Of a DNA stretch of 64,000 nt, positions 6,762-64,000 are shown piece by piece. The position numbers and the translations under genes were made by a program. Numbering within the stretch: the stretch's first letter is position 1; each line of letters begins with the position of its first letter. Origin of the DNA: Bacteroidia bacterium (lineage in GTDB: Bacteria; Bacteroidota; Bacteroidia; 2-12-FULL-35-15); NCBI GenBank assembly GCA_036170475.1, contig JAVHPE010000095.1, positions 36,906 through 100,905 on the forward strand. The letters run 5' to 3'. Below the pieces are notes generated by a model. That model was not told the origin of the DNA and did not search any database. It saw only the letters and a list, made by a program, of their open reading frames with translations.

Positions 6762-6769
6762 ATAATATA

Positions 6770-6818
6770 CTCAATCTCAATCTCACATCTTATATCTCAT
6801 ATCTCATATCTCATATCT
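6770..6818. repeat. Heptanucleotide tandem repeat (CTCAAT x2 then ATCTCAT x3-4) in the promoter region of the DUF2807 lipoprotein gene
   Basis: Read directly: ctcaatctcaatctcacatcttatatctcatatctcatatctcatatct. Confidence 0.8.
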
Positions 6819-14976: not shown

Positions 14977-15082
14977 AGTAAAAAAACTTTAGTATTTAAG
15001 CTAAGATTTCAAAGTGAGATACTAAATTTTATAAGCAATAAAGAGAGTTGCAAATCTATTATCTACAGTTTATTTAGTAATT

Positions 15083-16075
15083 CTATTGAGCAGGTGTAAA
15101 GCTTATTAATTCTACATCAAAAACCAATGTTGAGAAAGGAGGGATTGGTCCTGCACCTTGTTCTCCATATCCAATGGAAGAAGGAATAATTAATTGTCCT
15201 TTTGTACCAATACTCATCAGAGAAATGCCTTCATCCCAACCCGGGATAACTTTTCCTTCTCCCAAAGGAAATTCTATTGGTTGGTAAGGTCTTCTTTGAT
15301 CGAATACCCCTGCTAGTTTTGCAGCAGCTTCATCACTGGTATCAAAAACACTTCCATCTAACAAACGACCTGTATAATTTACTTTTACTTTACTTCCTTT
15401 TGTTGGTTTAGTTCCATTTCCGGGAGTTTTTTCAATATAGTACAAACCACTTAAAGTGGGTTTAACTGTAATTTTATTCTCCTCCAGATATTTAGCTAAT
15501 GTAGATGGTTCATTATTTTTAAGGCTTTCCATCATCGCTTTTTTCTCTTCCATTTTTTTAGTGTTTTCTTTCTCCGCTTCTTCCTTGGAAGTGATTTTTT
15601 CAAGTTTTACAACAAAATTCAACATGCTTTTTTTTTCAATAAAAGCGGGAACTTCTTTAGAACCAAAAGTTTTAAGAAAGAGAGAATCCGCATTAATCAA
15701 AAAGCTGGCACTATCTCCAGCCGACATCATAGATAAAGCATCTTCAAAACTTCCTTTGAATGTGGGTTTAGCCAAGGGGAATTCGATAAAGTCAGTTCCA
15801 TTCGGATTCTGTTTAGAATCAAATAATATTGAATCTTTGTTGGTTTTATACAACAATACTACTTTAACAACGTCGCTCTCTTTAGGTTTAACACCTTTCT
15901 CATTCTGTTTATAAAATTTAACATACAAGCCATTTTCAGTCTTTTTATAACCCGGATAAGAGGATTTTACAGTTTTTCCGGTAGTCGGGTTATTCCCTTT
16001 TAAACCTTTCCCATTTACCTGAGCATTCATCGTAATTGCTGATAATGCTAAAATAAGGATTGCTACTTTTTTCAT
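15083..16075 (-). CDS. FKBP-type peptidyl-prolyl isomerase (FkpA-like, N-terminal domain plus FKBP), secreted
   Basis: 330 aa. C-terminal FKBP domain (GRLLDGSVFDTS...IEFPLGEGKVIPGWDEGISLM). Tandem paralog of the next gene. Confidence 0.85.
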   Translation of the reverse strand: MKKVAILILALSAITMNAQVNGKGLKGNNPTTGKTVKSSYPGYKKTENGLYVKFYKQNEKGVKPKESDVVKVVLLYKTNKDSILFDSKQNPNGTDFIEFPLAKPTFKGSFEDALSMMSAGDSASFLINADSLFLKTFGSKEVPAFIEKKSMLNFVVKLEKITSKEEAEKENTKKMEEKKAMMESLKNNEPSTLAKYLEENKITVKPTLSGLYYIEKTPGNGTKPTKGSKVKVNYTGRLLDGSVFDTSDEAAAKLAGVFDQRRPYQPIEFPLGEGKVIPGWDEGISLMSIGTKGQLIIPSSIGYGEQGAGPIPPFSTLVFDVELISFTPAQ

Positions 16076-16101
16076 ATTGAATAAATTAGTATTGAGTTCC
16101 G

Positions 16102-17049
16102 TTAAAAACTTATTAATTCAACATCAAAAACCAATGGTGAAAAAGGAGGAATAGGACCTGCACCTTGCTCTCCATATCCTATAGAGGAAGGAATAATTAA
16201 TTGCGCTTTTGCGCCTGCACTCATTAAAGAAATACCCTCATCCCAACCTGGAATAACCTGCCCTTGCCCTAAAGGAAAATCAATTGGTGTATAAGTTCTT
16301 TCTTTATTATAGATACCTGCTTGTTTTGCAACTGCTTCATCACTGGTATCAAAAACACTTCCATCCAATAAGCGTCCTGTATAATTTACTTTTACCTTAC
16401 TTCCTTTAGTTGGTTTAGATCCTTTCCCTTTTGTTTTTTCGATATAATATAATCCGCTTGCAGTAGGTTTTGCAGTAATTTTATTAGTTTCTAAATATTT
16501 TGCAAAAGCTTTAGGTTCTTCATTTTTACGAAGTTCGATCATAGCTTTTTGCTCTTCCATTTTCTGACTGCGTTCTTTGTCTGCCACTTCCTTTGGTGTA
16601 ATTTTTTCAAGTTTTACTTCAAAATTTAGCATCGTTCCTTTTTGGATATAAGGAGGAAGAGTTTTAGTTCTGAAAGTTTTCAGATAAACGGAATCAGCAC
16701 TGATCATAAAGCTGGCGCTATCACCAACAGACATCATTGCCAATGCATCTTCGAAACTACCTTTAAATGTTGATTTACCTAAAGGGAACTCAATAAAATT
16801 AGTACCATTCGGGTTCTTGTTTTTTGAATCAAATAAAACAGAATCTTTGCTGTTTTTATATGCCAAAGATAATTTAACAATATCGCCTTCTTTAGGTTTA
16901 ACTCCCTTTGACTCCTGTTTAAAAAACTTAGCATATACACCGGTTTCGGTCTTTTCATAACCGGCGTATGGTGATTTATTACATGCAGTAACTACTAATA
17001 CAGCGCCAATAGCTGCAAACGCGACTTTTTTAGAAAATTGTTTTTTCAT
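16102..17049 (-). CDS. FKBP-type peptidyl-prolyl isomerase (FkpA-like), tandem duplicate of 15083..16075
   Basis: 315 aa. Collinear and highly similar to the upstream paralog along its full length. Confidence 0.85.
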   Translation of the reverse strand: MKKQFSKKVAFAAIGAVLVVTACNKSPYAGYEKTETGVYAKFFKQESKGVKPKEGDIVKLSLAYKNSKDSVLFDSKNKNPNGTNFIEFPLGKSTFKGSFEDALAMMSVGDSASFMISADSVYLKTFRTKTLPPYIQKGTMLNFEVKLEKITPKEVADKERSQKMEEQKAMIELRKNEEPKAFAKYLETNKITAKPTASGLYYIEKTKGKGSKPTKGSKVKVNYTGRLLDGSVFDTSDEAVAKQAGIYNKERTYTPIDFPLGQGQVIPGWDEGISLMSAGAKAQLIIPSSIGYGEQGAGPIPPFSPLVFDVELISF

Positions 17050-17121
17050 TTTATTTTTGTGAATTTTATTTTTGTGACATTTATTACTAATAAATTTTTT
17101 TCAAGGTGCAAATATAGTATA

Positions 17122-17209
17122 GATTTGAGAATTGAGATGTGAGATTTGAGAAAAAACATTCTTTAATATGGAAAGCTATTTCACATTTCCCATCTCATAT
17201 CTCATATCT
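17122..17209. repeat. Inverted arrays of the same heptamer family (ATTTGAG-type on the left, ATCTCAT on the right) flanking a 40-nt spacer, upstream of an FKBP gene
   Basis: gatttgagaattgagatgtgagatttgag ...40 nt... catctcatatctcatatct. Confidence 0.75.
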
Positions 17210-17470
17210 AACATGTATCTATTTGTTATACACAAGGCGTAAGGAAAAAAGGAAAGAACCCTATAATAAACGGACAAAGCAGACAGAAAAGTGCAATTCA
17301 ATCCGACACACCCCGACCACGCAAAAAGAAAATTTTGTTTTTTTTGCCAACGCACTTTTAAAAACAAGTGACTTTCCCCGCACACCGTCACTCATTTCTG
17401 TTAACTTTGTCACAGTCGCATTTCATAGTAAGAAAAAAAAGAAACGCCCTGGTGCCTAACATCACCTAAG

Positions 17471-17633
17471 TTACATGGCCGTTTATAGTAAGTTTCATCA
17501 TTTGAGTTCGCAATGAAAATAGGGCGTGGCAAAAACCTTTCACAGCGGTAGAAATTTTTAACTATTAGTTTTTGCCACTTGTAATTTTATAATTATTTTT
17601 ACGAAAGCGGCAACAGCCGCTTATTTTGCCGTT
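17471..17633 (+). repeat. Dispersed ~150-nt structured repeat, copy A (contains an 11-bp-stem hairpin gtggcaaaaac..gtttttgccac and a terminator-like hairpin aagcggcaacagccgctt + T-run)
   Basis: About 88% identical to 62047-62196. Overlaps the 3' end of the FKBP gene 17565..18524. Confidence 0.8.
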
Positions 17634-18524
17634 ATGTTTTGTTAAATTCAATAATTCTATTTCGTAAATAACAGTTGTGTATGCAGGAACAATATTGGTT
17701 GAAGAGCCTGTTTCGCCATAAGCAAGGCATGAAGGAATAATAAATTTTGTTTTTGCCCCTTCATTCATTAATCTTATTGCTGTGTTAAAACCTTTAATTA
17801 CCTGTCCTTCCTCGCCAAAATTAAATTCCAAAGGTTCCGCGCGTTCATAAGTAGATTCAAATTGCTTTCCATTTAAAAAATAGCCTTTGTAATGTATTTT
17901 TATCATATCTCCACTCTCCACGTAATCACCGGTACCTTGTTTTATTGGCAAATAATACATGCCATTATCCAGACGGTAAAATTGAGTTTGGTTGGTATCC
18001 AGATAAATCTGAAGCTTGCGTGATTCTTCAATATCGCGGTCTTCAATAATTACATGGTATTTTTCCAATTCGTCAATATATTCTTCTCTGGTTAAAATGC
18101 GATTTAATTTTATATCCATTTTAACAGCAGTTCCCCGATTTAAAAAAAGCGGGAGTTCTGTTTTAAAAAATTCTTTAAAGAGAGAATCAGCATTGACAAT
18201 AAAGGATACACTATCTCCTGCATTCATTTTGGTTAAGCCTTCTTCAAAGCTTCCTACAAAGGAGGATCGATTAAAAGGCAAAATAACCATTCCTGTTTCG
18301 TTACAAGAATAGGTGTCAAAAAAAACAGAATCTTTTAATGTTTTATAGGTAATTTTAAGTTGCAAAAAGTTACCGGGGGAAGGTTTACTCTTCCCGTCAC
18401 CAATCGTTTGTAACTTATAATATAGTCCTGAAGCAGTTTGAGTGTAGCCTTTAAAGGGTGAATTATCCCAACATGAACTTAAGATTGAAGAAATAAATAA
18501 GACAACGGTAACCTTGATATTCAT
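17565..18524 (-). CDS. FKBP-type peptidyl-prolyl isomerase with a C-terminal tail derived from a repeat element
   Basis: 319 aa. The FKBP domain ends at ..VIYEIELLN. The last ~25 aa (TKHNGKISGCCRFRKNNYKITSGKN) are encoded by the dispersed repeat at 17471-17633. Confidence 0.75.
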   Translation of the reverse strand: MNIKVTVVLFISSILSSCWDNSPFKGYTQTASGLYYKLQTIGDGKSKPSPGNFLQLKITYKTLKDSVFFDTYSCNETGMVILPFNRSSFVGSFEEGLTKMNAGDSVSFIVNADSLFKEFFKTELPLFLNRGTAVKMDIKLNRILTREEYIDELEKYHVIIEDRDIEESRKLQIYLDTNQTQFYRLDNGMYYLPIKQGTGDYVESGDMIKIHYKGYFLNGKQFESTYERAEPLEFNFGEEGQVIKGFNTAIRLMNEGAKTKFIIPSCLAYGETGSSTNIVPAYTTVIYEIELLNLTKHNGKISGCCRFRKNNYKITSGKN

Positions 18525-18551
18525 AAACTATTTTAGAAATAATTAGGCAAT

Positions 18552-19076
18552 TTAACGAATAGATAATAATTCAATATCATAAACTACAGAAGATTTTGGA
18601 GGTATTTTGCTATCGTCACCCATTAATCCATGCGCTAAATAGGATGGTAAAATAAAAATCGCTTTATCCCCCACATGAAGGAGTTGAATTCCCTCATGCA
18701 AGCCGCTTTCTACATTATCCTGTCCAATCAAAAAAACCTTAGCCCCTGTTGAATCAGATGAATAGCAAAGTGTTCCATCAAGCAGACTTATTTTATAATT
18801 TACTTTAGCATGTTTATCGGGCAAAGCGGGAGCACCCGTTCCTTTTTTTGTTATTATATAACGTAACCCTGTTCCTGTAGTAGTCATTTTCCAGCCACGA
18901 TGGGCAATATATTGATCAATTTCATCACTTTCCTGCCGAACGTACATTTTATTGGCATTAATCAATTTGTCCTGAAATTCTTTGCCTTGTATATTTGTAT
19001 TCTTCGTTGTTTTTTTATGCCCGTCGCTACAGGATTGAAATACAGAAACGAAAAGTAAAAAGCAAAAGAAGCTCAT
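18552..19076 (-). CDS. FKBP-type peptidyl-prolyl isomerase lipoprotein (GldI-like)
   Basis: FKBP signature (LLDGT...GLHEGIQLLHVGDKAIFILPSYLAHG). Lipobox VFQSC after an internal Met. The ORF could extend to 19166. Confidence 0.7.
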   Translation of the reverse strand: MSFFCFLLFVSVFQSCSDGHKKTTKNTNIQGKEFQDKLINANKMYVRQESDEIDQYIAHRGWKMTTTGTGLRYIITKKGTGAPALPDKHAKVNYKISLLDGTLCYSSDSTGAKVFLIGQDNVESGLHEGIQLLHVGDKAIFILPSYLAHGLMGDDSKIPPKSSVVYDIELLSIR

Positions 19077-19162
19077 CTCAAAGCCTCTTACCTTAATCCC
19101 CTCTCCAAAAGAAAAGGAAAATAAAGTGAGTTGGTTCCTGCCAGCTTTAACTTTCCCCTTTT

Positions 19163-20248
19163 TCATTTATCTTTTTCATTTTTAATGCTTAGTTTCCTCT
19201 GTTTATGGGAGGTTGGGATAGACTTCGGCTGGGATGGGCTACTCAGTTCTTTTTTATACTGAGGTAACAATGAAACGAATTTAATAATGGTTTCATCCAA
19301 CGATAAATCACTCATACCTCCCGCAGCGTTTGCATGTCCGCCACCATTAAAATGTTTGCGTGAAAAAAGATTCACATTAAAATTACCTTGCGACCGAAAG
19401 GATGTTTTTATTTCATCATCACGTTCCACAAAAAAGGCGGAAAAACGAATTCCTTCAATGGAAAGAGCATAATTGACAATACCTTCAGTATCTCCCTTTT
19501 TATAATTAAAATGGGTCAATTCATCATTTCGTAAACTAAAAAAAGCTGTTCCATATTCTTTTAAAATAGTCAATTTCTCCGCCAGACAAAAGCCTAATAA
19601 TCTCAGTTTATCTTCAGTATTGTCATCATAAATACGATTATGAATTGCGGCATTTTCTGCTCCCGCTTCAATCAATTCCGCGATTATTTTGTGTGTTTTC
19701 GCGGTAGTGGATGGGAAACGGAAAGAACCGGTATCTGTCATTATTCCAGTATATAAACAATTTGAAATGTTTTTATTAATAACTTTTTTATCATTCATTA
19801 GCTCAATGAAATCAAATACAAGTTCGCAGGTGGAGCATGCTTTTATATTGTGAAGCATGTAATCTGCAAAGTCCTCTGGTTGTAGGTGATGGTCGATGAT
19901 ACATTTTACCCCCTTAGCTTTTTCTACTTCCTCGCCCAATGCATCAATCCGTTTGAGTGAATTAAAATCCAGACAAAAAATAATATTCGCTTTTGCAACG
20001 GCTGTTTTAGCCTCCTTAGTTTTGTCAGAAAAGTTAATTACCTTTTTATTGCCGGGCAGCCAAAAAAGGAAGGAGGGATAATCATTTGGCGTAATAACTG
20101 TTACTTTATGTTTTTTAATGGTTAAATAGTTATATAAACCAAGGGAAGCCCCCATGGCATCACCGTCAGGCGACCAATGTGTAACAATTACTATGTTTTT
20201 AGACTTACTTAAAAGCTCTTTTATTTCTTTAACTTGATTTGCGTTCAA
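19163..20248 (-). CDS. nrnA: DHH-family phosphoesterase, NrnA-like (bifunctional oligoribonuclease / pAp phosphatase)
   Basis: Contains DHH (THWSPDGDAMGASLGL) and DHHA1 (NGGGHANAAGG) motifs. The ORF is open to 20533 (456 aa), but the first ~95 aa are hydrophobic junk. The conserved N-terminus (..NQVKEIKELLSKSKNIVIVTH) suggests a TTG start near 20248. Confidence 0.8.
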   Translation of the reverse strand: MNANQVKEIKELLSKSKNIVIVTHWSPDGDAMGASLGLYNYLTIKKHKVTVITPNDYPSFLFWLPGNKKVINFSDKTKEAKTAVAKANIIFCLDFNSLKRIDALGEEVEKAKGVKCIIDHHLQPEDFADYMLHNIKACSTCELVFDFIELMNDKKVINKNISNCLYTGIMTDTGSFRFPSTTAKTHKIIAELIEAGAENAAIHNRIYDDNTEDKLRLLGFCLAEKLTILKEYGTAFFSLRNDELTHFNYKKGDTEGIVNYALSIEGIRFSAFFVERDDEIKTSFRSQGNFNVNLFSRKHFNGGGHANAAGGMSDLSLDETIIKFVSLLPQYKKELSSPSQPKSIPTSHKQRKLSIKNEKDK

Positions 20249-27767: not shown

Positions 27768-30700
27768 ATGAAATCAAAAACTACTTTGTTCAAAATTTTT
27801 ATTATTTGTTTTTTTGCACTTGTTTTTTCTAAAACAAATGCAAGTACTTTTACAGTGATTAATACTTTGGATGCAGGTTCCGGATCATTGCGTCAGGCAA
27901 TTACTTCCGCAGGAACTAATCCTTATGATGCTGATAATATTATATTTAATATTCCTACATCCGATCCAAATTACAATGCTTCAACGGGTGTTTTTACCAT
28001 ATCTCCTGCATCTTTACTTCCTACTGTTAATAGTATTTCTGTATCTATAGATGGTACAACACAGCCGGGAAATACAAATCCAAATGGTCCTGAAATATGC
28101 ATTAAAAGTACCGCTAATCTGTCCTATGCTTTGTGTTTCCCATTTTCCGGATGTAGTGTAAAAGGCTTGATAATAAATGGATTTCAATATGGTGTTATTC
28201 TTACAAAGTATGGTACTTTTCCAAGTGGGTCTTGTACGGTTGCAAATTGTTATATTGGAGTAAATTACGATGGTAGCGCCGCACTTTCTAATGATATTGG
28301 AATTGTACTATATGGGGATGTTGCAACTAATACAATAAAGGACAATCTTATTTCTGGAAATACTACGGCAGGTATTGGTGTTAGGAAATCAAATGGCAAT
28401 GTTATCCAAGGAAATAAAATAGGGTGTGATAGAACAGGAATGTATGCTATTCCTAATTACTACGGTGTGGCTATTGATTCATCAGCAAATAACACTGTTG
28501 GCGGAAATACAGCGTTACAACGAAATATTATTTCAGGAAATTTATCTGCCGGAGTTGCCATTAATACAAATGTTTCACATGATAATACTGTCAAAGGAAA
28601 TTATATAGGTATCAATATTAATGGTATTGCCAGAACTGATACCATTCCAAATTTCTATGGTATTGCTATCAATGATTCCTACAATAATATTATTGGGGGT
28701 GCTTCGGCAGCGGAAAGAAATATCATTTCTGGTAATAGTGATGGTGGAATTTCCATTTTAGGTCCAAACGCTAAAAACATGACTATCAAAGGAAACTACA
28801 TTGGAACAAATATTTCCGGAACTGATTCTATACCAAACGCGAATGGAATTTTATTAAGCGGAACTTCCGGAAATACCATTGGCGGAAGCAATACAGGTGA
28901 GGGTAATTTAATTTCCGGAAATAAATCAGCAGGAATCGCCTTGGCATATTCAGGAACAAGATTAAATACAATAATTGGAAATTATATCGGAACAGATTTT
29001 CAAGGGACTCAGATATTGAGTAATTATACAGGAATTTATTTAAAGAGCAATGCCAATAAAAACACCATTGGTGGTTCTACTCCGGGTGAACGGAATATTA
29101 TTTCAGGAAATATTGAAATGGCATTATGTATTGAATCGTCTGACAGTAATACGGTAAAAGGAAATTATATTGGTCCTGATGTAACAGGCATGAATGCTTT
29201 AAAATTGTCGAATGATACGCTTGTTCAAGCCAATGGCTTATATTTTAATTCAAATTCAAAATACAATACTGCCGGTGGATACGGTGCAGGAGAAGGAAAT
29301 GTAATTTCCGGAAACAGGATATATGGTCATGATTATTATGGTAACTCTTCCTATAATCCCACTATTGGGAATTATATTGGTGTGGATGCAACCGGTAATA
29401 ACCCAATGCCCAACGCAACAGGTATTTGTATGGATGGGGGTTCTAATCATAATCCTATCATTAATAATGTTCTTTCAGGTAACCGTGCTTACGGAATATT
29501 TATTGTTACCACAGGCACCGATTACAATGTCCTTAACGGAAATAAAATTGGGACTAATGCAGCAGGAACTGATTCAGTACCAAATCAAATTGGCTTAATC
29601 CTTGGGGGAGGAACAAAACACAATACTATTGGGGGAACAACGACAGCAGATAGGAATATTATTTCGGGTAACAGATTTGATGGAATTGAAGTAGCTGATA
29701 CATATACTTCTTTAAATGATATTATAGGAAATTATATCGGGACAGACATCAGCGGAACCCTTGCATTGCCTAATTATAATGGTATTGGTTTCGCAAGTAG
29801 CCCAAGTAAAAATAATATTGAAAATAATGTGATCAGTGGAAATAGCTACTGCGGACTTATTCTTTATGAACAATGCGACAGCAATACTGTTTACAGCAAT
29901 AAGATTGGTGTTTCTATGGATGGAACTACGATTTTGAAAAATAATACCGCGGGAATAGTTATTGCAAAAGGCTCGAAATATAATATAATTGGTGCTTTGA
30001 ACAAAGGGAATATTATCGCAAATCATGATTCCATTGGTATTGCTGTTATTGATACAGGAACAGTGTTCAATACAATTTCCGCAAATCAGATTTATGGTAA
30101 TGGAATAATGGGAATTGATCTTTATCCTTATGGTGTTAATAATAACGATGTTTCAGATAATGATATCGGTTCCAATGAACTGATGAATTACCCTGTGATT
30201 CAAAATGTTTACCTTGATTGGTCAAGCGGAATCGCAACCATTACCGGAACGATGGATTGTGCAACATACAGTGGTCCTGATGGAATTAAAATTGAACTCT
30301 TTAAATCCAACGGAACCAATATGTTTAATCACGGGGATGCGACTGCCTTTCTTGGAGATACAGTAGTAGTAGGTAGTTCCGGAAACTGGAGTTTTAATTG
30401 TACAGGGTTAACTTCAAGTGATATGGTAACTGCTACGGCAACTGATGTTAAAGGGAATACCTCAGAATTTGCACAGAACATAGGTATCACGGTAAGTGTG
30501 AATGAAAATAATTCCGGTAATGAATACTCTGTTTATCCTAATCCAGCAAGTGACCAATTGAAAATTTCATTTTATTCATTGTCTGAAAAGAATGTCGAGA
30601 TTAATCTTTTTTCAATTACAGGAGAACTTGTTAAGATTATTGAGAACAAAAAATTTAGCATAGGTAAAGTTGAATTGAATTATGATATTTCCGAACTTCA

Positions 30701-30782
30701 TCTTAATAAAGGTTTGTATTTCCTTGCTATTACAGAAGAAGGAAGGGCAGTCAAAACGTCTAAAATTATTATTACTAACTAA
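27768..30782 (+). CDS. Right-handed parallel beta-helix repeat protein with CSLREA-like N-terminal motif and T9SS C-terminal sorting domain
   Basis: 1004 aa with a signal peptide. N-terminal GSGSLRQAIT motif. About 20 tandem ~22-aa PbH1-like repeats (GNYIG.D..G.....N..GI). C-terminal SVYPNPASDQLKISF.. T9SS CTD. Confidence 0.8.
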   Translation: MKSKTTLFKIFIICFFALVFSKTNASTFTVINTLDAGSGSLRQAITSAGTNPYDADNIIFNIPTSDPNYNASTGVFTISPASLLPTVNSISVSIDGTTQPGNTNPNGPEICIKSTANLSYALCFPFSGCSVKGLIINGFQYGVILTKYGTFPSGSCTVANCYIGVNYDGSAALSNDIGIVLYGDVATNTIKDNLISGNTTAGIGVRKSNGNVIQGNKIGCDRTGMYAIPNYYGVAIDSSANNTVGGNTALQRNIISGNLSAGVAINTNVSHDNTVKGNYIGININGIARTDTIPNFYGIAINDSYNNIIGGASAAERNIISGNSDGGISILGPNAKNMTIKGNYIGTNISGTDSIPNANGILLSGTSGNTIGGSNTGEGNLISGNKSAGIALAYSGTRLNTIIGNYIGTDFQGTQILSNYTGIYLKSNANKNTIGGSTPGERNIISGNIEMALCIESSDSNTVKGNYIGPDVTGMNALKLSNDTLVQANGLYFNSNSKYNTAGGYGAGEGNVISGNRIYGHDYYGNSSYNPTIGNYIGVDATGNNPMPNATGICMDGGSNHNPIINNVLSGNRAYGIFIVTTGTDYNVLNGNKIGTNAAGTDSVPNQIGLILGGGTKHNTIGGTTTADRNIISGNRFDGIEVADTYTSLNDIIGNYIGTDISGTLALPNYNGIGFASSPSKNNIENNVISGNSYCGLILYEQCDSNTVYSNKIGVSMDGTTILKNNTAGIVIAKGSKYNIIGALNKGNIIANHDSIGIAVIDTGTVFNTISANQIYGNGIMGIDLYPYGVNNNDVSDNDIGSNELMNYPVIQNVYLDWSSGIATITGTMDCATYSGPDGIKIELFKSNGTNMFNHGDATAFLGDTVVVGSSGNWSFNCTGLTSSDMVTATATDVKGNTSEFAQNIGITVSVNENNSGNEYSVYPNPASDQLKISFYSLSEKNVEINLFSITGELVKIIENKKFSIGKVELNYDISELHLNKGLYFLAITEEGRAVKTSKIIITN

Positions 30783-30828
30783 TCAAATCCCGACAGGTTT
30801 TTATAATCTGTCAGGATTAAACACTATT

Positions 30829-32880
30829 ATGACAAACAAATACTCCTTTTCCCTTTTCCTTATTTTAATTGTTGTTAATATTTCAAATGCCACTGTTTAT
30901 ACGGTAACAAATACAAACAATTCAGGAGCCGGTTCATTACGACAAGCAATTACCGATGTGAATATATACCCCGGTACACATACCATTTCATTTAATATTC
31001 CTACTACAGATCCAAATTATATTTCCTCACAAGGGGTATGGAAAATCACTCCAACAGCCACATTGCCAATTATTACGAGGAACAATGTATTGATTGATGG
31101 AACTACACAAACTACTAATCAGGGAGATACGAATCCTCTCGGACCTGAAATATTGATTGATGGTAATAATTTGTACGTTTCTGATTTTGCTTTTCATTTA
31201 TATAATGTTTCCGGGGCAACCATCAAAGGTTTTATCATTGGACGATTTACGGTTGGCATAGAGATTTCAGGCACAAGCCACGACAATATTATTGCAGAGA
31301 ATTATGTTGGTTGCAATTATAATGCTACCGACACTTTGAGTAATACGCATGGCATCGAATTATTGAGTGGTCCATACCACAATACCATTGGGGGATCCTC
31401 CATAAGCGATAGAAATATTTTTTCAGGAAATAATCATGTTGGAATTCGCGTAGTAAATTCTAACAGCAATATTATTAAAGGAAATTATGTTGGGCTCAAC
31501 CGCACTGGTGATGGCGCTGTTAGAAACTTTGATGGGATCAGTATTGAGGGAACATCAAAATACAATTTGATTGGCGGTTATACTTCCGCTGAAAGAAATT
31601 ATGTTTCCGGTAATGATGCCTATGGAATTCCGGTGTTTGGTACAGGGTGCAGTTACAATATTATCGTTGGAAATTATGTGGGGACAGATATTACAGGTAC
31701 CGATTCAATTCCTAACACTTACGGAGTTTTATTTGATGATGGTGCAAGTTATAACCGTCTGGGCGGACAACATGCAGGAGCCGGCAATTTATTGTCGGGC
31801 AATTCCGGTTATGGAGTTTTTCTTTATAATCCGGGAACACAAAAAGATACTGTTATTGGAAATCTTATTGGGACTGATGTTTCGGGTACATTGCCCTTGG
31901 CAAATTCAATTGGTATAGTAATAGACGGACCCTCTTATAAACATTATATCGACAGCAATGTGGTTTCAGCAAATCGCCAAAATGGTATTATTATTCATCT
32001 TAGTGGAAGCGATAGCAATATGGTGGTTAGGAATAAAATCGGAACAGATATTACCGGAACTCAGGCTCTCGGAAATGTATTTGACGGAATCAGAATAGGC
32101 GAAGGTCCACAGCATAATATAATAGGCAAACCGGGCAAAGGTAATATCATTGCCAATAATGGTGGTAATGGAATTACGGTTATGACCCCTGCGGAATTGT
32201 ATAATATTTTTACTGAAAATTCCATTTATAATAATGCAGGACTCGGCATTGACCTTTGGCCAGCGGGACCAACAAGTAATGATATAGGAGATGCGGACAC
32301 AGGACCAAATGATTTGATGAATTTTCCGGTGATTCAGAATTTGAATCTGAATACTTCCAACGGAGTTACAACTATCTCCGGAATTATTGATTATACAGTA
32401 TTTGGCGGAGCAAACGGAATAAAAATAGAATTGTTCAAATCGGATAATGATGCATCAGGCTATGGAGAAGGGAAAGAATTCATTGGCTCCGTTTTAGCTG
32501 ATGCTGCCGGCAATTGGGCATTTAGTTGTTCCTGCCTTACAGGCTCTGATATTGTTACTTCTACTGCTACCGACTTATTGGGGAACACTTCTGAGTTTTC
32601 TTTAAATGGCAGTATTACCGTAGGACTGGATGATATAACGAATGATAATGTGGTGCTATATCCCAATCCTGCCAATTCAGTTTTAACAGTTAAATTTTTA
32701 AACAGTAAGTTTCAAAATACGGATTATAAAATTATAAATATATTTGGAGAGCTTGTTTTGAAAGGAAATTTAAAAGAAAGTGAAAATAATATCGATATAA
32801 ACATCTTATCCAAAGGTATTTATTATTTGCAAATACAAAGTAAAGTTAATGTGGTAATCAGAAAAATTATAAAGGAATAA
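30829..32880 (+). CDS. Right-handed parallel beta-helix repeat protein, paralog of 27768..30782, with T9SS C-terminal sorting domain
   Basis: Same architecture as the upstream paralog: GAGSLRQAIT, PbH1-like repeats and VLYPNPANSVLTVKF CTD. The ORF is open from 30682, but the signal peptide starts at Met 30829. Confidence 0.8.
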   Translation: MTNKYSFSLFLILIVVNISNATVYTVTNTNNSGAGSLRQAITDVNIYPGTHTISFNIPTTDPNYISSQGVWKITPTATLPIITRNNVLIDGTTQTTNQGDTNPLGPEILIDGNNLYVSDFAFHLYNVSGATIKGFIIGRFTVGIEISGTSHDNIIAENYVGCNYNATDTLSNTHGIELLSGPYHNTIGGSSISDRNIFSGNNHVGIRVVNSNSNIIKGNYVGLNRTGDGAVRNFDGISIEGTSKYNLIGGYTSAERNYVSGNDAYGIPVFGTGCSYNIIVGNYVGTDITGTDSIPNTYGVLFDDGASYNRLGGQHAGAGNLLSGNSGYGVFLYNPGTQKDTVIGNLIGTDVSGTLPLANSIGIVIDGPSYKHYIDSNVVSANRQNGIIIHLSGSDSNMVVRNKIGTDITGTQALGNVFDGIRIGEGPQHNIIGKPGKGNIIANNGGNGITVMTPAELYNIFTENSIYNNAGLGIDLWPAGPTSNDIGDADTGPNDLMNFPVIQNLNLNTSNGVTTISGIIDYTVFGGANGIKIELFKSDNDASGYGEGKEFIGSVLADAAGNWAFSCSCLTGSDIVTSTATDLLGNTSEFSLNGSITVGLDDITNDNVVLYPNPANSVLTVKFLNSKFQNTDYKIINIFGELVLKGNLKESENNIDINILSKGIYYLQIQSKVNVVIRKIIKE

Positions 32881-44537: not shown

Positions 44538-45152
44538 TTAGGTGCAAAGCCCTATTATCAGACTACCTAAATAGTAACAAAAATTCAATAATTCCTCATA
44601 CAATTCTTTTACAGGCAGTCCCATCACATTAAAATAAGAGCCTTCAATTTTCTCAATAGCGATGTATCCAATCCAATCCTGTGCGCCATAAGCACCTGCT
44701 TTATCATAAGGATTAAAATTATTGACATAATATTCAATTTCTTCCTGAGATACTTTTTTAAAATAAACATGGGTTAATGCGTAAAATGTTTTTGTCTTAT
44801 GTTTTGATTTTAAACAAACTCCAGTATATACTTCGTGTTTTTTTCCTGAAAGCATTTTTAGCATACGTACAGCATCCTCATAATTTTTAGGTTTATTGAG
44901 TACTTGATTATCTATCCAAACAATGGTATCTGCGGTAATCACAATGGTATTATCGCTTAGCTCCTTATCAAATGCCTCCGCTTTTTTTCTACATAAATAA
45001 AGAGGAATTTCCTGAGCAATTAAATTTTCAGGGAAACTTTCATCTACCTCTTTAGTGTGTACCTCAAAATTAAAGCCTAATTCTTTCAGCAAATACTGTC
45101 TTCGCGGTGATTTGGAAGCCAGTATTAATTTGTATTTTTTTATATCTTTCAT
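44538..45152 (-). CDS. maf: Maf-like nucleoside triphosphate pyrophosphatase (septum formation protein Maf)
   Basis: 204 aa. Maf N-terminal motif LILASKSPRRQYLLKELG. Confidence 0.85.
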   Translation of the reverse strand: MKDIKKYKLILASKSPRRQYLLKELGFNFEVHTKEVDESFPENLIAQEIPLYLCRKKAEAFDKELSDNTIVITADTIVWIDNQVLNKPKNYEDAVRMLKMLSGKKHEVYTGVCLKSKHKTKTFYALTHVYFKKVSQEEIEYYVNNFNPYDKAGAYGAQDWIGYIAIEKIEGSYFNVMGLPVKELYEELLNFCYYLGSLIIGLCT

Positions 45153-45276
45153 TTTACTACATTAAATTTTAAAACCTCCTCCTAAATCCATTTCCTTAAA
45201 TAATGGAAAACTAGTAATTTTTTTACCAAAGGTAGCACAGATTTAGGTAGATTTTTCTATGGTAATTTGAATTAAA

Positions 45277-46387: not shown

Positions 46388-47572
46388 ATGATTCATTCAA
46401 AAAATAAAAAAATAAAAAAAACATCTATTGTTTTTCCCGCTGATAAATTTTTATCCGGTTCTCTTCACAAACGGATAGAACAAAGTTCGTTACGTAAATT
46501 AGTTATTAATAATCAGTTGATTGATTTTTGTAGTAACGACTATTTAGGTTTTGCCAGTAATAAAGAATTAATTGACTTTACCGAACTTGAGATCTCAAAT
46601 CTCAAATCTCAAATCTCAAATCTCTCCGGTTCAACCGGTTCTCGTTTATTAGCGGGCAATTCAGCTTATGCCGAAACATTAGAAAAAAAAACCGCAACAT
46701 TTCACCATGCAGAAGCTGGTTTAATTTATAATTCGGGTTATGATGCAAATGTGGGTTTATTCTCTGCCTTAGGGCAAACAGGGGATACTATCATTTATGA
46801 TGAATTGATACATGCCTCAGTGCATGATGGAATAAGATTATCATCAGCCTCCGCTTTTATGTTCAGGCACAATAACATTTTACATCTGGAAGAACGTCTG
46901 AAAATAGCAAAAGAGATTGTTTACGTTGTTGTTGAAAGCATTTATTCAATGGACGGAGATACGGCATCATTAAAAGAAATTGCTATACTCTGTAAAAAGC
47001 ACAATGCCAATTTAATTGTTGATGAGGCTCATGCAACAGGCATTACACTCAATAATGGCAAAGGAATTGTAAGCCAGTTGAATCTGGAACAGGATATTTT
47101 TGCCCGTATTCATACTTTTGGCAAAGCACTTGGATGCCATGGTGCTATCGTACTTGGAAGCGATTTGCTTCGTAATTTTCTGATCAACTTTTCCCGCTCT
47201 TTTATTTATACTACTGCCTTGCCGGTAAAAAGTCTTGTTGCTGTGAACCAAGCCTATCAATTACTTCAGAAGAGTGAAGACTTGATCAAACAACTTCATG
47301 AACTTATCCGATACTTTAAAAACCATCTTTCAGAAAATCCAAAAGCACAATTAATTGTAAGCAATAGTGCCATACAAAGTATCATTGTTACCGGAAATGA
47401 CAAGGTAAAAAAACTTGCTTCCATATTGCAACAAGGCGGGTATGATGTACGCCCTATTCTTAGTCCGACCGTTCCCAAAGGAAAAGAACGTTTACGTATT
47501 TGTATTCATGCTTTCAATACACAATCGCAAATTCAAGGCTTATGTGATTCTATTAACAAGCACTTTAAATAA
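46388..47572 (+). CDS. bioF: 8-amino-7-oxononanoate synthase
   Basis: 394 aa. Collinear with E. coli BioF (SNDYLGF, PLP-lysine region TFGKALG). Contains an in-frame heptanucleotide repeat at 46592-46624. Confidence 0.9.
   Translation: MIHSKNKKIKKTSIVFPADKFLSGSLHKRIEQSSLRKLVINNQLIDFCSNDYLGFASNKELIDFTELEISNLKSQISNLSGSTGSRLLAGNSAYAETLEKKTATFHHAEAGLIYNSGYDANVGLFSALGQTGDTIIYDELIHASVHDGIRLSSASAFMFRHNNILHLEERLKIAKEIVYVVVESIYSMDGDTASLKEIAILCKKHNANLIVDEAHATGITLNNGKGIVSQLNLEQDIFARIHTFGKALGCHGAIVLGSDLLRNFLINFSRSFIYTTALPVKSLVAVNQAYQLLQKSEDLIKQLHELIRYFKNHLSENPKAQLIVSNSAIQSIIVTGNDKVKKLASILQQGGYDVRPILSPTVPKGKERLRICIHAFNTQSQIQGLCDSINKHFK
46592..46624 (+). repeat. (ATCTCAA)x4 plus partial heptanucleotide repeat in-frame inside bioF
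   Basis: atctcaaatctcaaatctcaaatctcaaatctc, encoding ..EISNLKSQISNL.. Confidence 0.85.
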
Positions 47573-60192: not shown

Positions 60193-60954
60193 ATGCAAAC
60201 CAAACAACAAAAAAAAGAAGAGGAAAGTTTAATATTTGGACTAAGACCCATTATTGAAGCTATCCGGGCAGGTAAAGAAATTGATAAACTACTCGTTCAA
60301 TCAGGTTTAAAAAGCGAATTATTTTCTGAGTTGATGGGCGTTTTAAAGCAACATAACGTTACGTTTCAATATGTCCCTGTTGAAAAACTGAACCGGCTTA
60401 CCACAAAAAATCATCAGGGTGTTGTAGGATATATTTCCGCAATCACGTATCATAAAATAAAAAATATATTGCCCGCTATTATCTCCAGCGGAAAAGTTCC
60501 TTTATTATTGATTTTAGATCGAATTACTGATGTACGTAATTTTGGTGCGATAGCCCGTACAGCCGAATGTTCTGGTGTTAACGCAATCATAATACCCTCC
60601 CATGGTGCGGCACAAATTAATGCGGATGCGATTAAAACTTCTGCCGGTGCATTACACAAGATTTCGGTATGCAGGGAAGAAAACGTAAAAACTGTAATTG
60701 ACTTTTTAAAAGAATGTGGTGTACAAATTGTTGCCTGTACAGAAAAAACTTCGGATTATTATTTCCAGATTGATTTTACGGTGCCTACCGCCATTATTAT
60801 GGGTTCGGAAGAAGATGGCATTTTAAATGAATACCTCCAAAAGTCAGATGCGAAAGCTAAAATTCCTTTGATGGGAGAAATAGGCTCATTGAATGTATCG
60901 GTTGCCGCCGGTATCATTTTATATGAAGCGGTTAGCCAGAGGTTGGTAAATTGA
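60193..60954 (+). CDS. rlmB: SpoU/TrmH-family RNA 2'-O-methyltransferase (RlmB-like)
   Basis: 253 aa. SPOUT motifs IILDRITDVRNFGAIARTA and IIMGSEEDGI. Confidence 0.85.
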   Translation: MQTKQQKKEEESLIFGLRPIIEAIRAGKEIDKLLVQSGLKSELFSELMGVLKQHNVTFQYVPVEKLNRLTTKNHQGVVGYISAITYHKIKNILPAIISSGKVPLLLILDRITDVRNFGAIARTAECSGVNAIIIPSHGAAQINADAIKTSAGALHKISVCREENVKTVIDFLKECGVQIVACTEKTSDYYFQIDFTVPTAIIMGSEEDGILNEYLQKSDAKAKIPLMGEIGSLNVSVAAGIILYEAVSQRLVN

Positions 60955-61043
60955 ATTATTATCATTCATTCGTAAATGTTCCGCCTTTTGTCTTAAATAC
61001 ACAATTCAAGAAGTATACTTCGGGAAATTAAAATTGAAATACT

Positions 61044-61067
61044 TGCAACAGTCGCTTATTTTGCCGT
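61044..61067 (+). repeat. Partial copy (3' end) of the dispersed repeat
   Basis: gcaacagtcgcttattttgccgtt matches the 3' part of copies A and B. Confidence 0.5.
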
Positions 61068-61161
61068 TGGCGGTAATTGTAAAAAAAACCGCTTCCCGAA
61101 AATGTTTCCATTTATTGCAACTTTTGTTGTATCTTTGTAGGGAAACTTTATATGAAACAAT

Positions 61162-61500
61162 ATGACACCTAAGTTTAATGTTTTGTTTATGGAAGATGTG
61201 CGTGAATTCCTTGCGTGGGTTGACCAAAAATCTAAAGACAAAATTATTTACAATATCGACCGTGCCAAATTGCATAACGACCGAGAGTTATTCAAAAAAT
61301 TGAAAGGCGAAATTTGGGAATTTAGAACCCTTTATAACAAGACCTATTACAGACTCTTTGCTTTTTGGGATAAATCGGACAAATCTGAAACATTAGTTAT
61401 TTCAACTCATGGAATAATTAAAAAAACAGATAAAGTTCCCGAGAAAGAAATTGAAAAAGCGGAATTATTAAGACAAAAATATTTTAAACTTAAAAAATAA
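61162..61500 (+). CDS. Type II toxin, RelE/ParE superfamily (HigB-like / Gp49-like)
   Basis: 112 aa. Toxin-first arrangement, directly followed 5 nt later by an HTH-XRE protein. Confidence 0.65.
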   Translation: MTPKFNVLFMEDVREFLAWVDQKSKDKIIYNIDRAKLHNDRELFKKLKGEIWEFRTLYNKTYYRLFAFWDKSDKSETLVISTHGIIKKTDKVPEKEIEKAELLRQKYFKLKK

Positions 61501-61505
61501 TTATT

Positions 61506-61835
61506 ATGGCAACCGTGAGTAAAATGAAGCTATACACGTTAGAAGACATTAAAGATGAGTTCATCGGGAAACGTGGGACAGTTAAACGTGACCAGTACGA
61601 ACAAGAATTGCAACTTGAAGTATTAGGCGACATGATTAAACAAGTTAGACTTGAACGTAATTTAACACAGGAACAACTTGGAAAATTAATTGGAGTGCAA
61701 AAGGCTCAAATTTCTAAATTGGAGAACAGTGCGACCAATGTCACAATGGAGACTATTTTGCGTGTATTTAATGCTTTAAAAGCTAAAGTAAGTTTTAGGG
61801 TGGAATTAAAAAATCATCAAATTCAAATTGCTTAA
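61506..61835 (+). CDS. HTH XRE-family antitoxin (HigA-like)
   Basis: 109 aa. HTH_3 motif LTQEQLGKLIGVQKAQISKLEN. Confidence 0.7.
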   Translation: MATVSKMKLYTLEDIKDEFIGKRGTVKRDQYEQELQLEVLGDMIKQVRLERNLTQEQLGKLIGVQKAQISKLENSATNVTMETILRVFNALKAKVSFRVELKNHQIQIA

Positions 61836-61840
61836 AGAAA

Positions 61841-62033
61841 CTACGGAGAGTTACGGATATTTACGGACTGTGGCGTAGAAAAAAACGCAACGTAAAGAAC
61901 GGACATTTACGGAGAATAACGGGTATTTGCGAACTGTAACGCAGAAAAATGCAACTCAAAACACGGACATTTACGGAGAATAACGGATATTTACGGACTG
62001 TAACGTGGAAAGAAAAAGAAACAACTAACCGCC
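61841..62033. repeat. Three tandem ~64-nt direct repeats rich in TTACGGA/ACGGA words (iteron-like)
   Basis: The unit tacggagaataacgg(a/g)tattt(a/g)cg(g/a)actgtaacg + an A-rich ~20 nt tail occurs 3 times. Confidence 0.8.
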
Positions 62034-62046
62034 AACATTAAATATG

Positions 62047-62196
62047 CTATATGGCCGTTCATAGTAAGCTTCATCATTTGAGTCCGCAATTGAAATAGGT
62101 CGTGGCAAAAACCTTTCACAGAGGCAGAAATTTTTATCTATTAGTTTTTGCCACTTTTAATTTTACAATTTTTTTTACGAATCGGCAACATCGCTT
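62047..62196 (+). repeat. Dispersed ~150-nt structured repeat, copy B
   Basis: Same element, same orientation. Lies between the 64-nt tandem repeats and the IS3 transposase fragment. Confidence 0.8.
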
Positions 62197-62279
62197 CAGA
62201 CCATAACGGTTAGACCTGTGTTTGCTGACTTGTAGACAATTACGCAGAAAAATAATCCGACCCTTTAAAAGCATTAGAG

Positions 62280-62666
62280 ATGGCAATTAAGTCGCGAAAA
62301 TATACAAATCGAAAACTTATACATCATTCAGACAGAGGTTTGCAGTACTGCGATGGGGATTATATCGCAGTTTTAAAACACAATAAAATTAGTCCTAGTA
62401 TGACCGAAGTATACGACCCATACGAAAACGCAATAGCAGAGCGGGTAAACGGAATACTTAAAGACGAATTCGACATTGGAGAAGGTTTTATAAATCATAT
62501 ACAAGCTGTAAAGGAAATAAAAGAAGCTATAGAAACATATAATTCTTTTCGCCCCCATTTAAGCTGTGAAATGATGACACCTGTTGATGCGCATACATTT
62601 GGTAAGTTTAAAATGAAAAAATGGGGAGGACGAAAGAAGTACAACAAAAAATTAATATACCTTTGA
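62280..62666 (+). pseudogene. IS3-family transposase fragment (C-terminal part of the rve integrase core only)
   Basis: Contains HSDRGLQY...NAIAERVNGILKDE...FRPHLSCEMMTPVDAH, i.e. the DDE-domain C-terminus. The frame closes ~50 nt upstream, so there is no N-terminal half and no orfA. Confidence 0.6.
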
Positions 62667-62995
62667 ATCGTCAAGTTAAACGGAATCAAGCTATGCTGAA
62701 GAGCAACTTGCTAGGGATACACTTGATGAACGACAAAAATGTCAATTCAATGGGGAGTCAATCCGATAACCCATTGATATTTTTAGAGTTCAATATGCTT
62801 AAAAAAACTTACCCAAAGAAAATCTAAGACAATGATAAATTTCATAATTTCTAACTAAAAAAAGTGTCAACCTATTTCAGGACAAGACATTTACAGATTA
62901 TTTTGAAAGAATAATAAAAATGCTTGACGCAATAAGAAATAGAAAGTGATACAATTTCGGTTAAAAAGATATATGATAAATTAAAAAAAAATTAA

Positions 62996-63094
62996 ATGCC
63001 CGAACAACATAATATAGAATACAAACAAAGTTGGCACGAAGACTACCTAAAATGGGTTTGTGGTTTTGCCATGAACTTACTTATGATGAAGTGA
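62996..63094 (+). pseudogene. N-terminal fragment of a divergent-AAA (AlbA_2 / AAA-4) ATP-binding protein
   Basis: The 32-codon ORF MPEQHNIEYKQSWHEDYLKWVCGFA.. matches the conserved N-terminus (E.K.SW.....LK.I.AFAN) of AAA-4 family proteins and then terminates. Confidence 0.35.
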
Positions 63095-63162
63095 AAATTA
63101 TAGATAAAGATTTTGCATTGAGTGAAGCGGAGTATGAGAAATTTAATGTAGTAAAATAAGCA

Positions 63163-64000
63163 ATGGCTAAAAAACAAATACCGGCAAAAGAAGGATTCAA
63201 CGAAATTTTGCTTTACACCACACCCAATGGCAAAGTAAAGGTTGAAATTTATTTGCAAAACGAAACAATATGGCTTACCCAACAAAAAATAGCTGATTTG
63301 TTTGGGGTGCAAAGACCAGCCGTTACTAAACACCTGAAAAATATTTTTGAATCAGGTGAATTAAAGGAAGATTCAGTTAGTTCCATTTTGGAACATACTG
63401 CCTCAGACGAAAAAAAGTATAAGACATTATTTTATAATCTGGATGCTATTATTTCCGTAGGTTATCGTGTCAACAGCAGTCAGGCAACGGCATTCCGTAT
63501 TTGGGCAACAGAAAGATTAAAGGAATACATCATCAAAGGATTTACAATGGATGATGAAAGGCTCAAAAACCCGAACAATATTTTTGGGAAAGATTATTTC
63601 GAAGAGCAATTGGCGCGGATTCGCGATATCCGTTCGAGCGAAAGACGATTCTATCAAAAAATTACAGATATATATTCGCAATGCAGTGCCGATTATATTG
63701 TAAACGAACAAACCACTAAAGATTTTTTTGCAGCAGTTCAAAACAAACTGCATTGGGCAATAACAGGACATACAGCCGCTGAAATAATTGCAGCAAGAGT
63801 TGACGGTTCTAAAGAAAATATGGGTTTAACTACCTGGGAAAATGCGCCAAAAGGAAAAATCAGAAAAACAGATATTGGCGTTGCAAAAAATTATCTTAAC
63901 GAAAAAGAATTAGACGGGTTAAACCGAATAGTAACAATGTATTTGGATTATGCAGAAATTCAAGCGATGAAAGGAATAGTAATGTATATGAAAGACTGGA
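63163..64000 (+). CDS. RhuM-family (virulence-protein RhuM / Fic-associated) protein, 3' end beyond the window
   Basis: Open frame from ATG 63163 to the end of the window (>279 aa). Conserved RhuM motifs (..IWLTQQKIADLFGV....ISVGYRVNS..AT.FRIWAT..L.EY...). Confidence 0.75.
   Translation, partial: MAKKQIPAKEGFNEILLYTTPNGKVKVEIYLQNETIWLTQQKIADLFGVQRPAVTKHLKNIFESGELKEDSVSSILEHTASDEKKYKTLFYNLDAIISVGYRVNSSQATAFRIWATERLKEYIIKGFTMDDERLKNPNNIFGKDYFEEQLARIRDIRSSERRFYQKITDIYSQCSADYIVNEQTTKDFFAAVQNKLHWAITGHTAAEIIAARVDGSKENMGLTTWENAPKGKIRKTDIGVAKNYLNEKELDGLNRIVTMYLDYAEIQAMKGIVMYMKDW

Follow-up and report, generated by a model that had tools for sequence, protein, structure and literature searches.

We analysed the downstream end of a 64,000-nucleotide (nt) stretch of DNA from a Bacteroidia bacterium (GenBank assembly GCA_036170475.1, contig JAVHPE010000095.1, positions 36,906 to 100,905 of the forward strand; hereafter the window), where a dispersed, structured repeat resembling the attC sites of integron cassettes lies among a toxin-antitoxin (TA) gene pair, transposase debris, and a RhuM-family gene, all behind the rRNA methyltransferase gene rlmB. 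Features were identified by Pfam and NCBIfam profile searches, Tandem Repeats Finder (TRF), blastn, and nhmmer. An initial annotation had listed seven features after rlmB (a partial and a full copy of the dispersed repeat, the TA pair, three tandem repeats of ~64 nt, the end of an IS3-family transposase, a divergent-AAA remnant, and RhuM), and all seven were recovered in the places given (Pfam, NCBIfam, TRF, and blastn). They are set out below in window coordinates, together with a second site further upstream; L-numbers (L004–L119) denote comparison loci or contigs from genomes or from Logan or Joint Genome Institute (JGI) metagenomes, A4 is an alignment of 19 complete copies of the attC-like site, and R'', L'', L', and R' are the arms of the site from left to right.

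17436 to 17645, + strand: second, solitary attC-like site between FKBP paralogues (nhmmer E 2.5e-65; neighbours Pfam FKBP_C)
60193 to 60954, + strand: rlmB-type SpoU rRNA 2'-O-methyltransferase (Pfam SpoU_methylase E 2.1e-37, SpoU_sub_bind E 1.3e-17)
61023 to 61068, + strand: remnant of an upstream site (site 0), only its L'-spacer-R' end, with GTT at 61066–61068 (aligns with the right ends of the L100 and L105 copies)
61066 to 61161, + strand: cassette leader (end-pairing signature; resembles the leaders of L116, L100, and L091)
61162 to 61500, + strand: Gp49/HigB-like toxin of the RelE/ParE superfamily, 112 amino acids (aa) (Pfam PF05973, Gp49, E 6.7e-15)
61506 to 61835, + strand: HTH-XRE (HigA-like) antitoxin, 109 aa (Pfam HTH_3, PF01381, E 1.7e-12)
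61842 to 62033, + strand: cassette trailer of three ~64-nt units (TRF; units aligned with the flanks preceding R'' in L116, L087, and L099)
62012 to 62229, + strand: attC-like structured site, the dispersed repeat (nhmmer E 5e-59; A4 alignment, covariation)
62205 to 62262, + strand: single trailer-type repeat unit from another cassette (86% match to the tandem units at the end of L088)
62280 to 62666, + strand: C-terminus of an IS3-family transposase in a 128-codon open reading frame (ORF) (rve_3 E 5e-17; NCBIfam transpos_IS3 E 6.4e-29)
62860 to 62889, + strand: probable right end of an IS3 element, AAAAGTGTCAACCTATTTCAGGACAAGACA (21- to 29-nt matches in L079 and L084)
62996 to 63094, + strand: stub of an AlbA_2/divergent-AAA gene ("ATP-binding protein") with ~25 N-terminal codons left (tblastn E 9e-6)
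63163 to 64000, + strand: RhuM-family gene running off the window (Pfam PF13310 E 5.2e-94, at profile positions 7–206 where the window ends)

The conserved left anchor of this region is rlmB, which was 59%–94% identical across 80 related Bacteroidota loci compared within 10 kb of the gene; the RlmB matches closest to that of the window (93%–94% identity) came from metagenome-assembled genomes (MAGs) of uncultured lake and groundwater Bacteroidota. Neither the TA pair, the IS3 piece, nor RhuM was found within 10 kb of rlmB at any of the 80 loci. A conserved protein of 460 aa (P466) starts 2–109 nt after rlmB in about 12 more distant species, followed by a C1 peptidase, an AHSA1 protein, and an M1 peptidase, and this rlmB-P466 adjacency is probably the ancestral state. 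Within the closest clade (L005–L009, L085, and L086), each genome carries a different cargo of one or two genes straight after rlmB, namely an Exo_endo_phos nuclease (L007), a DUF6864 pair (L008), an HNH protein matching PADLOC model PDC-M68A (E 7e-25) as well as models of cyclic-oligonucleotide-based anti-phage signalling system (CBASS) and Shedu nucleases (L009), and ORFans (L005, L006, L085, and L086). A small outer-membrane beta-barrel gene stands behind the cargo in L006, L007, L008, L085, and L086; in L009, P466 follows the cargo directly, with no beta-barrel gene between them. Comparison of the rlmB junction across these loci showed a variable insertion rather than conserved housekeeping sequence, as the initial annotation had proposed, and positions 61000–64000 are the proximal part of a strain-specific insertion hotspot directly after rlmB. 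As at known integration hotspots and defence islands, different accessory genes occupy one fixed position between conserved genes in each genome, although here they come as small cassettes with a specific site rather than as large islands at a tRNA or integrase gene. The remainder of the window is ordinary core chromosome, encoding a type IX secretion system plug, the FKBP paralogues, MazG, Maf, BioB, and RmuC, among others.

The dispersed repeat has only two full copies in the window, 62012–62229 and 17436–17645, which are 84% identical (blastn); the former, listed as a full copy in the initial annotation, has a right arm truncated at ~62203. The partial repeat behind rlmB (61045–61068) is identical to 17610–17633 at 23 of 24 nt and extends to ~61023–61068 when aligned with other copies. 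Beyond these, an nhmmer profile of the site gave 38 matches, partial copies included, in the window and the comparison DNA, and a 20-mer from the site core recovered 20 JGI metagenome contigs, 12 of them from one sample, with no matches in viral contigs. Logan and JGI contigs repeatedly begin or end inside copies of the site, and all four Logan contigs carrying the TA pair of the window end inside it, at 62019–62114; contigs breaking in this manner indicate that the site is multi-copy in these genomes.

All 19 complete copies share one layout. From left to right, it begins with a tract rich in A and an outer arm that varies, followed by AAC (invariant, 19/19 copies), 5 unpaired nt, and a copy-specific left arm; next come a strongly conserved core of ~110 nt, whose 11-bp hairpin (GTGGCAAAAAC/GTTTTTGCCAC) is invariant, a right arm complementary to its left counterpart, 6 unpaired nt, GTT (18/19 copies), and another variable outer arm. 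In the 62-kb site, the AAC of R'' at 62034–62036 is followed by the 5-nt spacer, L'' (AAATATGC), the conserved core with its hairpin, and an L' that breaks off at ~62203, while in the 17.4-kb site, AAC lies at 17458–17460 and GTT at 17631–17633, with ~184 nt from R'' to R' (17454–17637). Structure was assessed on A4 with RNAalifold and explicit pair counting, with significance taken from 500 shuffles. Pairing was found in 95.8% of cells, 31 cells were changed on both sides, and five column pairs covaried (33/198, 36/192, 37/191, 38/190, and 44/183); none of the 500 shuffles reached the observed covariation score, and sliding the 3' partners by 1–3 columns cut pairing to 37%–53%. The unpaired spacers of 5 nt (columns 28–32) and 6 nt (columns 199–204) match canonical attC geometry, as in the attC of aadA7. 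An asymmetric internal loop of 4/5 nt (columns 39–42 vs 185–189) could supply the extrahelical base that attC sites have in the L box of the folded bottom strand, although no particular base could be assigned.

Several further observations concern the 17.4-kb copy. Five tandem paralogues of FKBP-type peptidyl-prolyl isomerases (FKBP_C) occupy 13792–19166 on the − strand, and this site lies, in the opposite orientation, in a 500-nt gap between the third and fourth of them. It is a mosaic, its left arm being of an L088-like subfamily and its right arm L100-like. Simple repeats of the CTCATATCT/CTCAAATCT type are present at three intergenic spots of the window (6766–6833, 17178–17217, and 46585–46624), one of them just left of the 17.4-kb site, and in L087, L088, L099, L100, and L102 tandem repeats with a different sequence are found to the left of the site.

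Behind rlmB, the TA genes lie between the site 0 remnant and the 62-kb site, and the boundaries of this TA cassette are 61066 and ~62203. As the one intact cassette of the window, it would start with the GTT at 61066 and continue through a promoter-like leader, the toxin and antitoxin genes, and a trailer of three units to its own site, from 62012 to ~62203. Its outer arm GTTGGCGGTAATTGT (61066–61080) is complementary to 62019–62033 at 13 of 15 nt, immediately ahead of the AAC of that site. Within the leader, TATCTTTG at 61130–61137 resembles the Bacteroidetes −7 box, whose consensus TAnnTTTG it fits, and may act as the promoter of the cassette. The trailer was detected as a tandem repeat at 61842–62005 (TRF period 64, 2.5 copies, 82% matches, score 221, with a 10-nt sub-period) and carries TACGGA motifs every ~10 nt. 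Its units 1 and 2 finish in AACGGACATT, aligned with AACCGCCAACATT of unit 3; both are degenerate copies, in tandem, of the segment whose end is R'' of the site, and the ~64-nt units are not plasmid iterons. In L116, L087, and L099, where the cargo is unrelated, this trailer likewise stands directly ahead of the site.

The TA pair itself resembles HigBA-type modules in its toxin-first type II gene order, its gene sizes (112 and 109 aa), the 5-nt gap between the genes, and its Gp49 and HTH_3 domains, and the same architecture occurs ahead of the site in L097 and L106. It differs in that the predicted toxin belongs to the Gp49 (PF05973) branch rather than being a canonical HigB. NCBIfam antitoxin models match the product of 61506–61835 only below their cut-offs. 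The toxin is identical in 10 Logan contigs; the L097 pair shares just 36%–37% identity with that of the window. The most likely role of the predicted pair, judged by analogy with the TA cassettes of sedentary chromosomal integrons, is to stabilise the array.

Related DNA carries arrays of such sites. Sites in the same orientation, spaced 0.9–4.4 kb apart, were found by blastn and nhmmer in six loci, with L103 and L105 holding three apiece and L096, L104, L106, and L101 two apiece. From reading of the ORFs, the genes lying between or beside sites in the relatives include a HigB-HigA pair (L106), a Gp49-HTH pair with the architecture seen in the window (L097), an antitoxin-ParE pair (L090), a methyltransferase with a restriction enzyme (L096), a DUF262 protein (L091), an HNH/NUMOD4 protein (L105), and BRO/DinD-like proteins (L098, L100, and L103). 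TA and restriction or methylation genes are among the common functions of integron cassettes (PMC8618304). Mechanically called ORFs within 1.5 kb of a site were co-oriented with it by 60 to 15, and several of the 15 are artefacts inside tandem repeats.

The mobile unit of an integron starts with the TT... behind the G of one site and ends with the G of the following one, so that arrays contain chimeric sites (PMC4889954). To score cassette ends, the first 16 nt behind GTT of an upstream site were compared with the 16 nt that precede AAC in the downstream site, taken as their reverse complement. All eight pairs of consecutive sites matched, with a mean score of 7.9, compared with 2.7 for arms of the same site and 2.2 (sd 1.8) for all other combinations; examples include L103a to L103b (17/18 nt), L104 (15/16), and L105a to L105b (15/17). 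The true downstream partner was the best of all 22 left ends in five of the eight pairs. Identical cassette starts also occur behind different upstream L' arms, with the switch falling exactly at GTT (L100/L091, L090/L096a, L099/L104a, and L103b/L103c/L106b). In L116/L117, a cassette encoding proteins of 175 aa and 60 aa has a site copy ahead of it and is closed, directly before P466, by a 79-nt site whose core differs but whose geometry is the same (CGCCAAC-5-ATATAC ... GTATAT-6-GTAGGC in L116); the 175-aa gene is related to the cargo of L005 (67% nucleotide identity). Pairing with the next site, together with junctions at GTT, is the signature of circularisable, integron-type cassettes.

Other observations were made at the rlmB junction of the relatives. 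The OMP_b-brl_2 gene of L006–L008, L085, and L086 has GTTAAAC or GTTGAAC ahead of it, and at L089:1816-2030 the R' of a site abuts the upstream region of a small beta-barrel gene, so that the seemingly conserved beta-barrel gene may itself have arrived as a cassette. Within the first ~160 nt after rlmB, a conserved element of ~110 nt separates the gene from its cargo in L005, L006, L008, and L009 and terminates in GTTAGGC-, GTTAGTG-, or GTTGGTG-type motifs. By eye, the nucleotides after this GTT pair with the left arm of the site closing the cargo (8/9 in L008, 11/15 in L005, and 13/16 in L009), and the element could be attI-like or the first site of the array. In L119, a related MAG (GCA_038918245.1, JBCLAG010000015.1), a Peptidase_M90 gene and a SprB-like gene, not rlmB, precede the P466 block, which makes the rlmB/P466 junction a synteny breakpoint in the group as well. 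One Logan sample (L004:780-1035, compared with 60940–61175 of the window) has an 18-nt tandem duplication (TTTGTCTTAAATACACAA) in the gap between rlmB and the TA pair and is otherwise identical, indicating population-level variation at the junction.

We consider it fairly likely that the dispersed repeat serves as a cassette site of attC type and that the hotspot is an integron-type array in which no integrase is visible, of the kind termed a cluster of attC sites lacking integron-integrases (CALIN). Read in this manner, the locus is a probable further case of integron-type arrays. The ~185-nt site is ordered as R'' (..YAAC), 5-nt spacer, L'', structured core, L', 6-nt spacer, and R' (GTTR..), and the cassettes would be moved by an IntI-type tyrosine recombinase. 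With integrons, including sedentary chromosomal integrons, CALINs, and the Vibrio cholerae superintegron with its V. cholerae repeats (VCRs), the family shares the AAC...GTT ends, the unpaired spacers, and the covarying L arms. Its sites vary in length, from 79 to ~185 nt, as attC sites do, and are alike in sequence within one lineage, as are VCRs. The arrays of short co-oriented ORFs, the chimeric sites that pair a cassette start with its own downstream R'', and a cargo rich in TA, restriction-modification, and nuclease genes are likewise integron traits (PMC4889954, PMC8618304). Integrons have been reported in Bacteroidota but are rare there (PMC9024848, PMC8618304, PMC9668308), and the host here belongs to an uncultured Bacteroidia lineage.

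A number of results weigh against this interpretation, several of them being differences from known integrons. No tyrosine recombinase was found by Pfam among 20 ORFs of the window, nor by tblastn with IntI1 and XerD queries in the window or in the array-bearing loci among 120 loci; the array-bearing contigs are short, and this negative covers those contigs, not the rest of the genome. Neither an intI gene nor an attI site nor a cassette promoter (Pc) could be defined. Sites of attC type usually span about 57–141 nt, and the main family, at ~185 nt, exceeds this range, with outer (R-side) stems of up to 13–17 bp. Its core is strongly conserved in sequence, whereas that of classical attC sites is not, and promoter-like leaders (~100 nt, with the promoter-like box) and trailers of ACGGAC-rich repeats are conserved across unrelated cargo and kept between cassettes. 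Read by eye from the aligned ends, the full RYYYAAC motif is present in only 9 of the 19 copies and the full GTTRRRY in only 6, compared with 1/16 expected by chance. The window itself holds one cassette with one site remnant and one solitary site, the latter flanked by opposite-strand genes at 17.4 kb, rather than a multi-cassette array, and its own end pair (61066 to 62034) scores only third-best among the 22 left ends.

It seems unlikely that the region is merely the flank of a generic defence or mobile-element island, its repeat being a palindrome without any role in gene movement, like a miniature inverted-repeat transposable element (MITE) or a repetitive extragenic palindromic doublet forming a hairpin (REPIN). 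Long inverted arms are in keeping with such an element, the outer arms of some copies do pair with each other (score 9 in L097 and L103c, 7 in L100), and the conserved core is like that of a recently amplified repeat family, with 84%–92% identity between copies. The solitary copy between opposite-strand housekeeping FKBP genes and the failure to find a recombinase also fit this explanation. A self-contained MITE would not, however, predict an outer arm that pairs after GTT with the next site in all eight cases rather than with its own, and the arms covary even though their sequence differs between copies. The strong strand bias shared with neighbouring ORFs, the shift from shared to unshared sequence exactly at GTT, and a short site that keeps the same geometry around another core (L116) argue further for the integron-type reading.

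A second possibility, to which we assign a similarly low probability, accepts the cassettes and differs in the mechanism: the ~185-nt sites, together with the conserved promoter-bearing leaders and ACGGAC-repeat trailers, may form a cassette-exchange platform that is specific to a freshwater Bacteroidia lineage and mechanistically distinct from classical integrons. Such a platform might use another recombinase, or accessory proteins binding the phased TACGGA motifs, and would give rise to arrays as well as single sites across the chromosome, with TA, restriction-modification, and nuclease genes travelling as self-expressed cassettes.

Quite improbable, in our assessment, is a role of the repeat as a transcribed RNA element, whether a multi-copy small RNA or a 3'-untranslated-region stabiliser or terminator, with the tandem units being regulatory. 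The site is co-oriented with the upstream genes and its pairs covary as in a structured RNA; moreover, six copies, including that at 17.4 kb, have in their common left flank a box like the −7 element of Bacteroidetes, either TAACTTTG or a form of it with one mismatch (at 17.4 kb, the TAACTTTG-type box lies ~45 nt upstream of AAC), and at the right end of some copies a small GC hairpin is followed by Ts. Yet no Rfam family matches the site at gathering cut-offs, permissive E-values gave only sub-threshold chance matches, and folding single sequences gave no unusual stability (z −2.2 and −1.4 as RNA, 0.1 as DNA) and was uninformative, the comparison across copies alone being decisive for the structure. 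A consensus scan found no terminator-like site in 60900–64000, and terminator and sigma-70 promoter scans of the region showed no enrichment. An RNA element also does not explain why the flank of one site pairs with that of the next, ~1 kb away. Finally, the region is almost certainly not the remnant of an integrated plasmid or integrative and conjugative element with the 64-nt repeats as replication iterons, as the initial annotation had called them, and the TA pair as an addiction module: tandem direct repeats with 10-nt phasing beside a TA pair do superficially resemble a plasmid maintenance region, but the region lacks rep, par, mob, and integrase genes, the units duplicate the site-proximal cassette trailer including a degenerate R'', and L116, L087, L099, and L088 have equivalent units ahead of the site, following cargo that is unrelated.

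Downstream of the TA cassette, the integron-type array would have decayed into a truncated site with a stray trailer unit, an IS3 tail with its probable end, and an AlbA_2 stub, followed by the intact RhuM gene. The right arm of the 62-kb site ends at ~62203 and is fused to the lone trailer-type unit at 62205–62262. A GTTAGAC at 62209 was considered as the R' of this site and rejected, as the stretch belongs to the L088-like trailer unit, and its position there implies that the site is truncated. The IS3 ORF covers profile positions 266–368 of 369 of transpos_IS3, or the final ~28% of the transposase, and none of the frames ahead of the fragment encodes the preceding part. With only these positions present, it is a transposase fragment and not an element. 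Further on, AAAAGTGTCAACCTATTTCAGGACAAGACA is probably the right end of an IS3 element, as its match in L079 adjoins an IS3-type (rve) transposase gene. The 32-codon ORF at 62996–63094 has no direct Pfam match, even at E 10; its first 25 residues are 65%–70% identical (tblastn) to the N-termini of Bacteroidota "ATP-binding proteins", one of which consists of SLFN_AlbA_2 (PF04326, E 4.3e-10) followed by HATPase_c_4. The description of this end of the window as a graveyard of mobile elements thus holds for the IS3 tail and the AlbA_2 stub, which are real debris, but not for the dispersed repeat, which is most likely the organising element, or for the TA pair, which it bounds as a cassette.

A 42-codon ORF at 63031–63159, which has no family match, ends 3 nt before the RhuM start (...ELTYDEVKIIDKDFALSEAEYEKFNVVK) and could be what is left of the C-terminal end of the AlbA_2-type gene, now deleted, or of some other gene that lay upstream. 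Its identification as the tail of the methyltransferase that accompanies RhuM in Ignavibacteria was rejected, there being no similarity upstream of 63141. A 41-nt inverted match between 45151–45191 and 63117–63157 was judged to be due to chance (E 0.004 for its 19-nt exact part).

The RhuM gene continues beyond the window. A full-length protein identical to the encoded part (P0001, 100%) has 338 aa, which places the expected gene end at ~64179, and it matches PADLOC candidate PDC-S05 across residues 9–337 (E 2.4e-147), so that the likeness to both the PF13310 and PDC-S05 models is full-length. DNA identity to Ignavibacteria contigs (L107–L114) is 86% over the stretch that begins 22 nt before the ATG and reaches the end of the window, and the proteins are 91% identical, which indicates a recent cross-phylum transfer of RhuM. 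In Ignavibacteria, RhuM closes a type III restriction-modification operon (ResIII, DUF1016, and N6_N4_Mtase), and in L107–L114 this operon is inserted between hydrogenase maturation genes. The window gene differs in standing alone behind a pseudogene stub, the similarity being essentially confined to the gene. RhuM proteins 85%–91% identical occur in several phyla, and no attC-like site flanking RhuM was found within the window. On sequence comparison, RhuM is a single-gene module passed horizontally between lineages and a candidate for a role in defence. PADLOC reported for the region only this candidate (PDC-S05) and a weak, partial NsnC match for the toxin. The suggestion of a defence-island flank is borne out in part, by the hotspot, the PDC-S05 match of RhuM, and the HNH cargo of a relative, but none of the recognised multi-gene defence systems occurs in these 3 kb.

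Elsewhere in the window, two large adjacent ORFs (1004 and 732 aa) at 27768–32880 contain at least 10 copies of a periodic repeat of ~190 nt (families D1 and D3) and probably encode a repetitive surface protein.

With the attC-like site recognised, a list of seemingly junk features becomes one coherent structure, and the limits of the mobile unit can be placed at GTT 61066 and at the site from 62012 to ~62203. Copies of the site also explain the fragmentation of assemblies at these loci, and this lineage-specific family can be traced with one 20-mer. If the sites prove to be independent of IntI, they would constitute a new cassette system. More generally, the attC-like family offers a handle on the exchange of TA, restriction-modification, and other phage-related genes in uncultured freshwater Bacteroidia.

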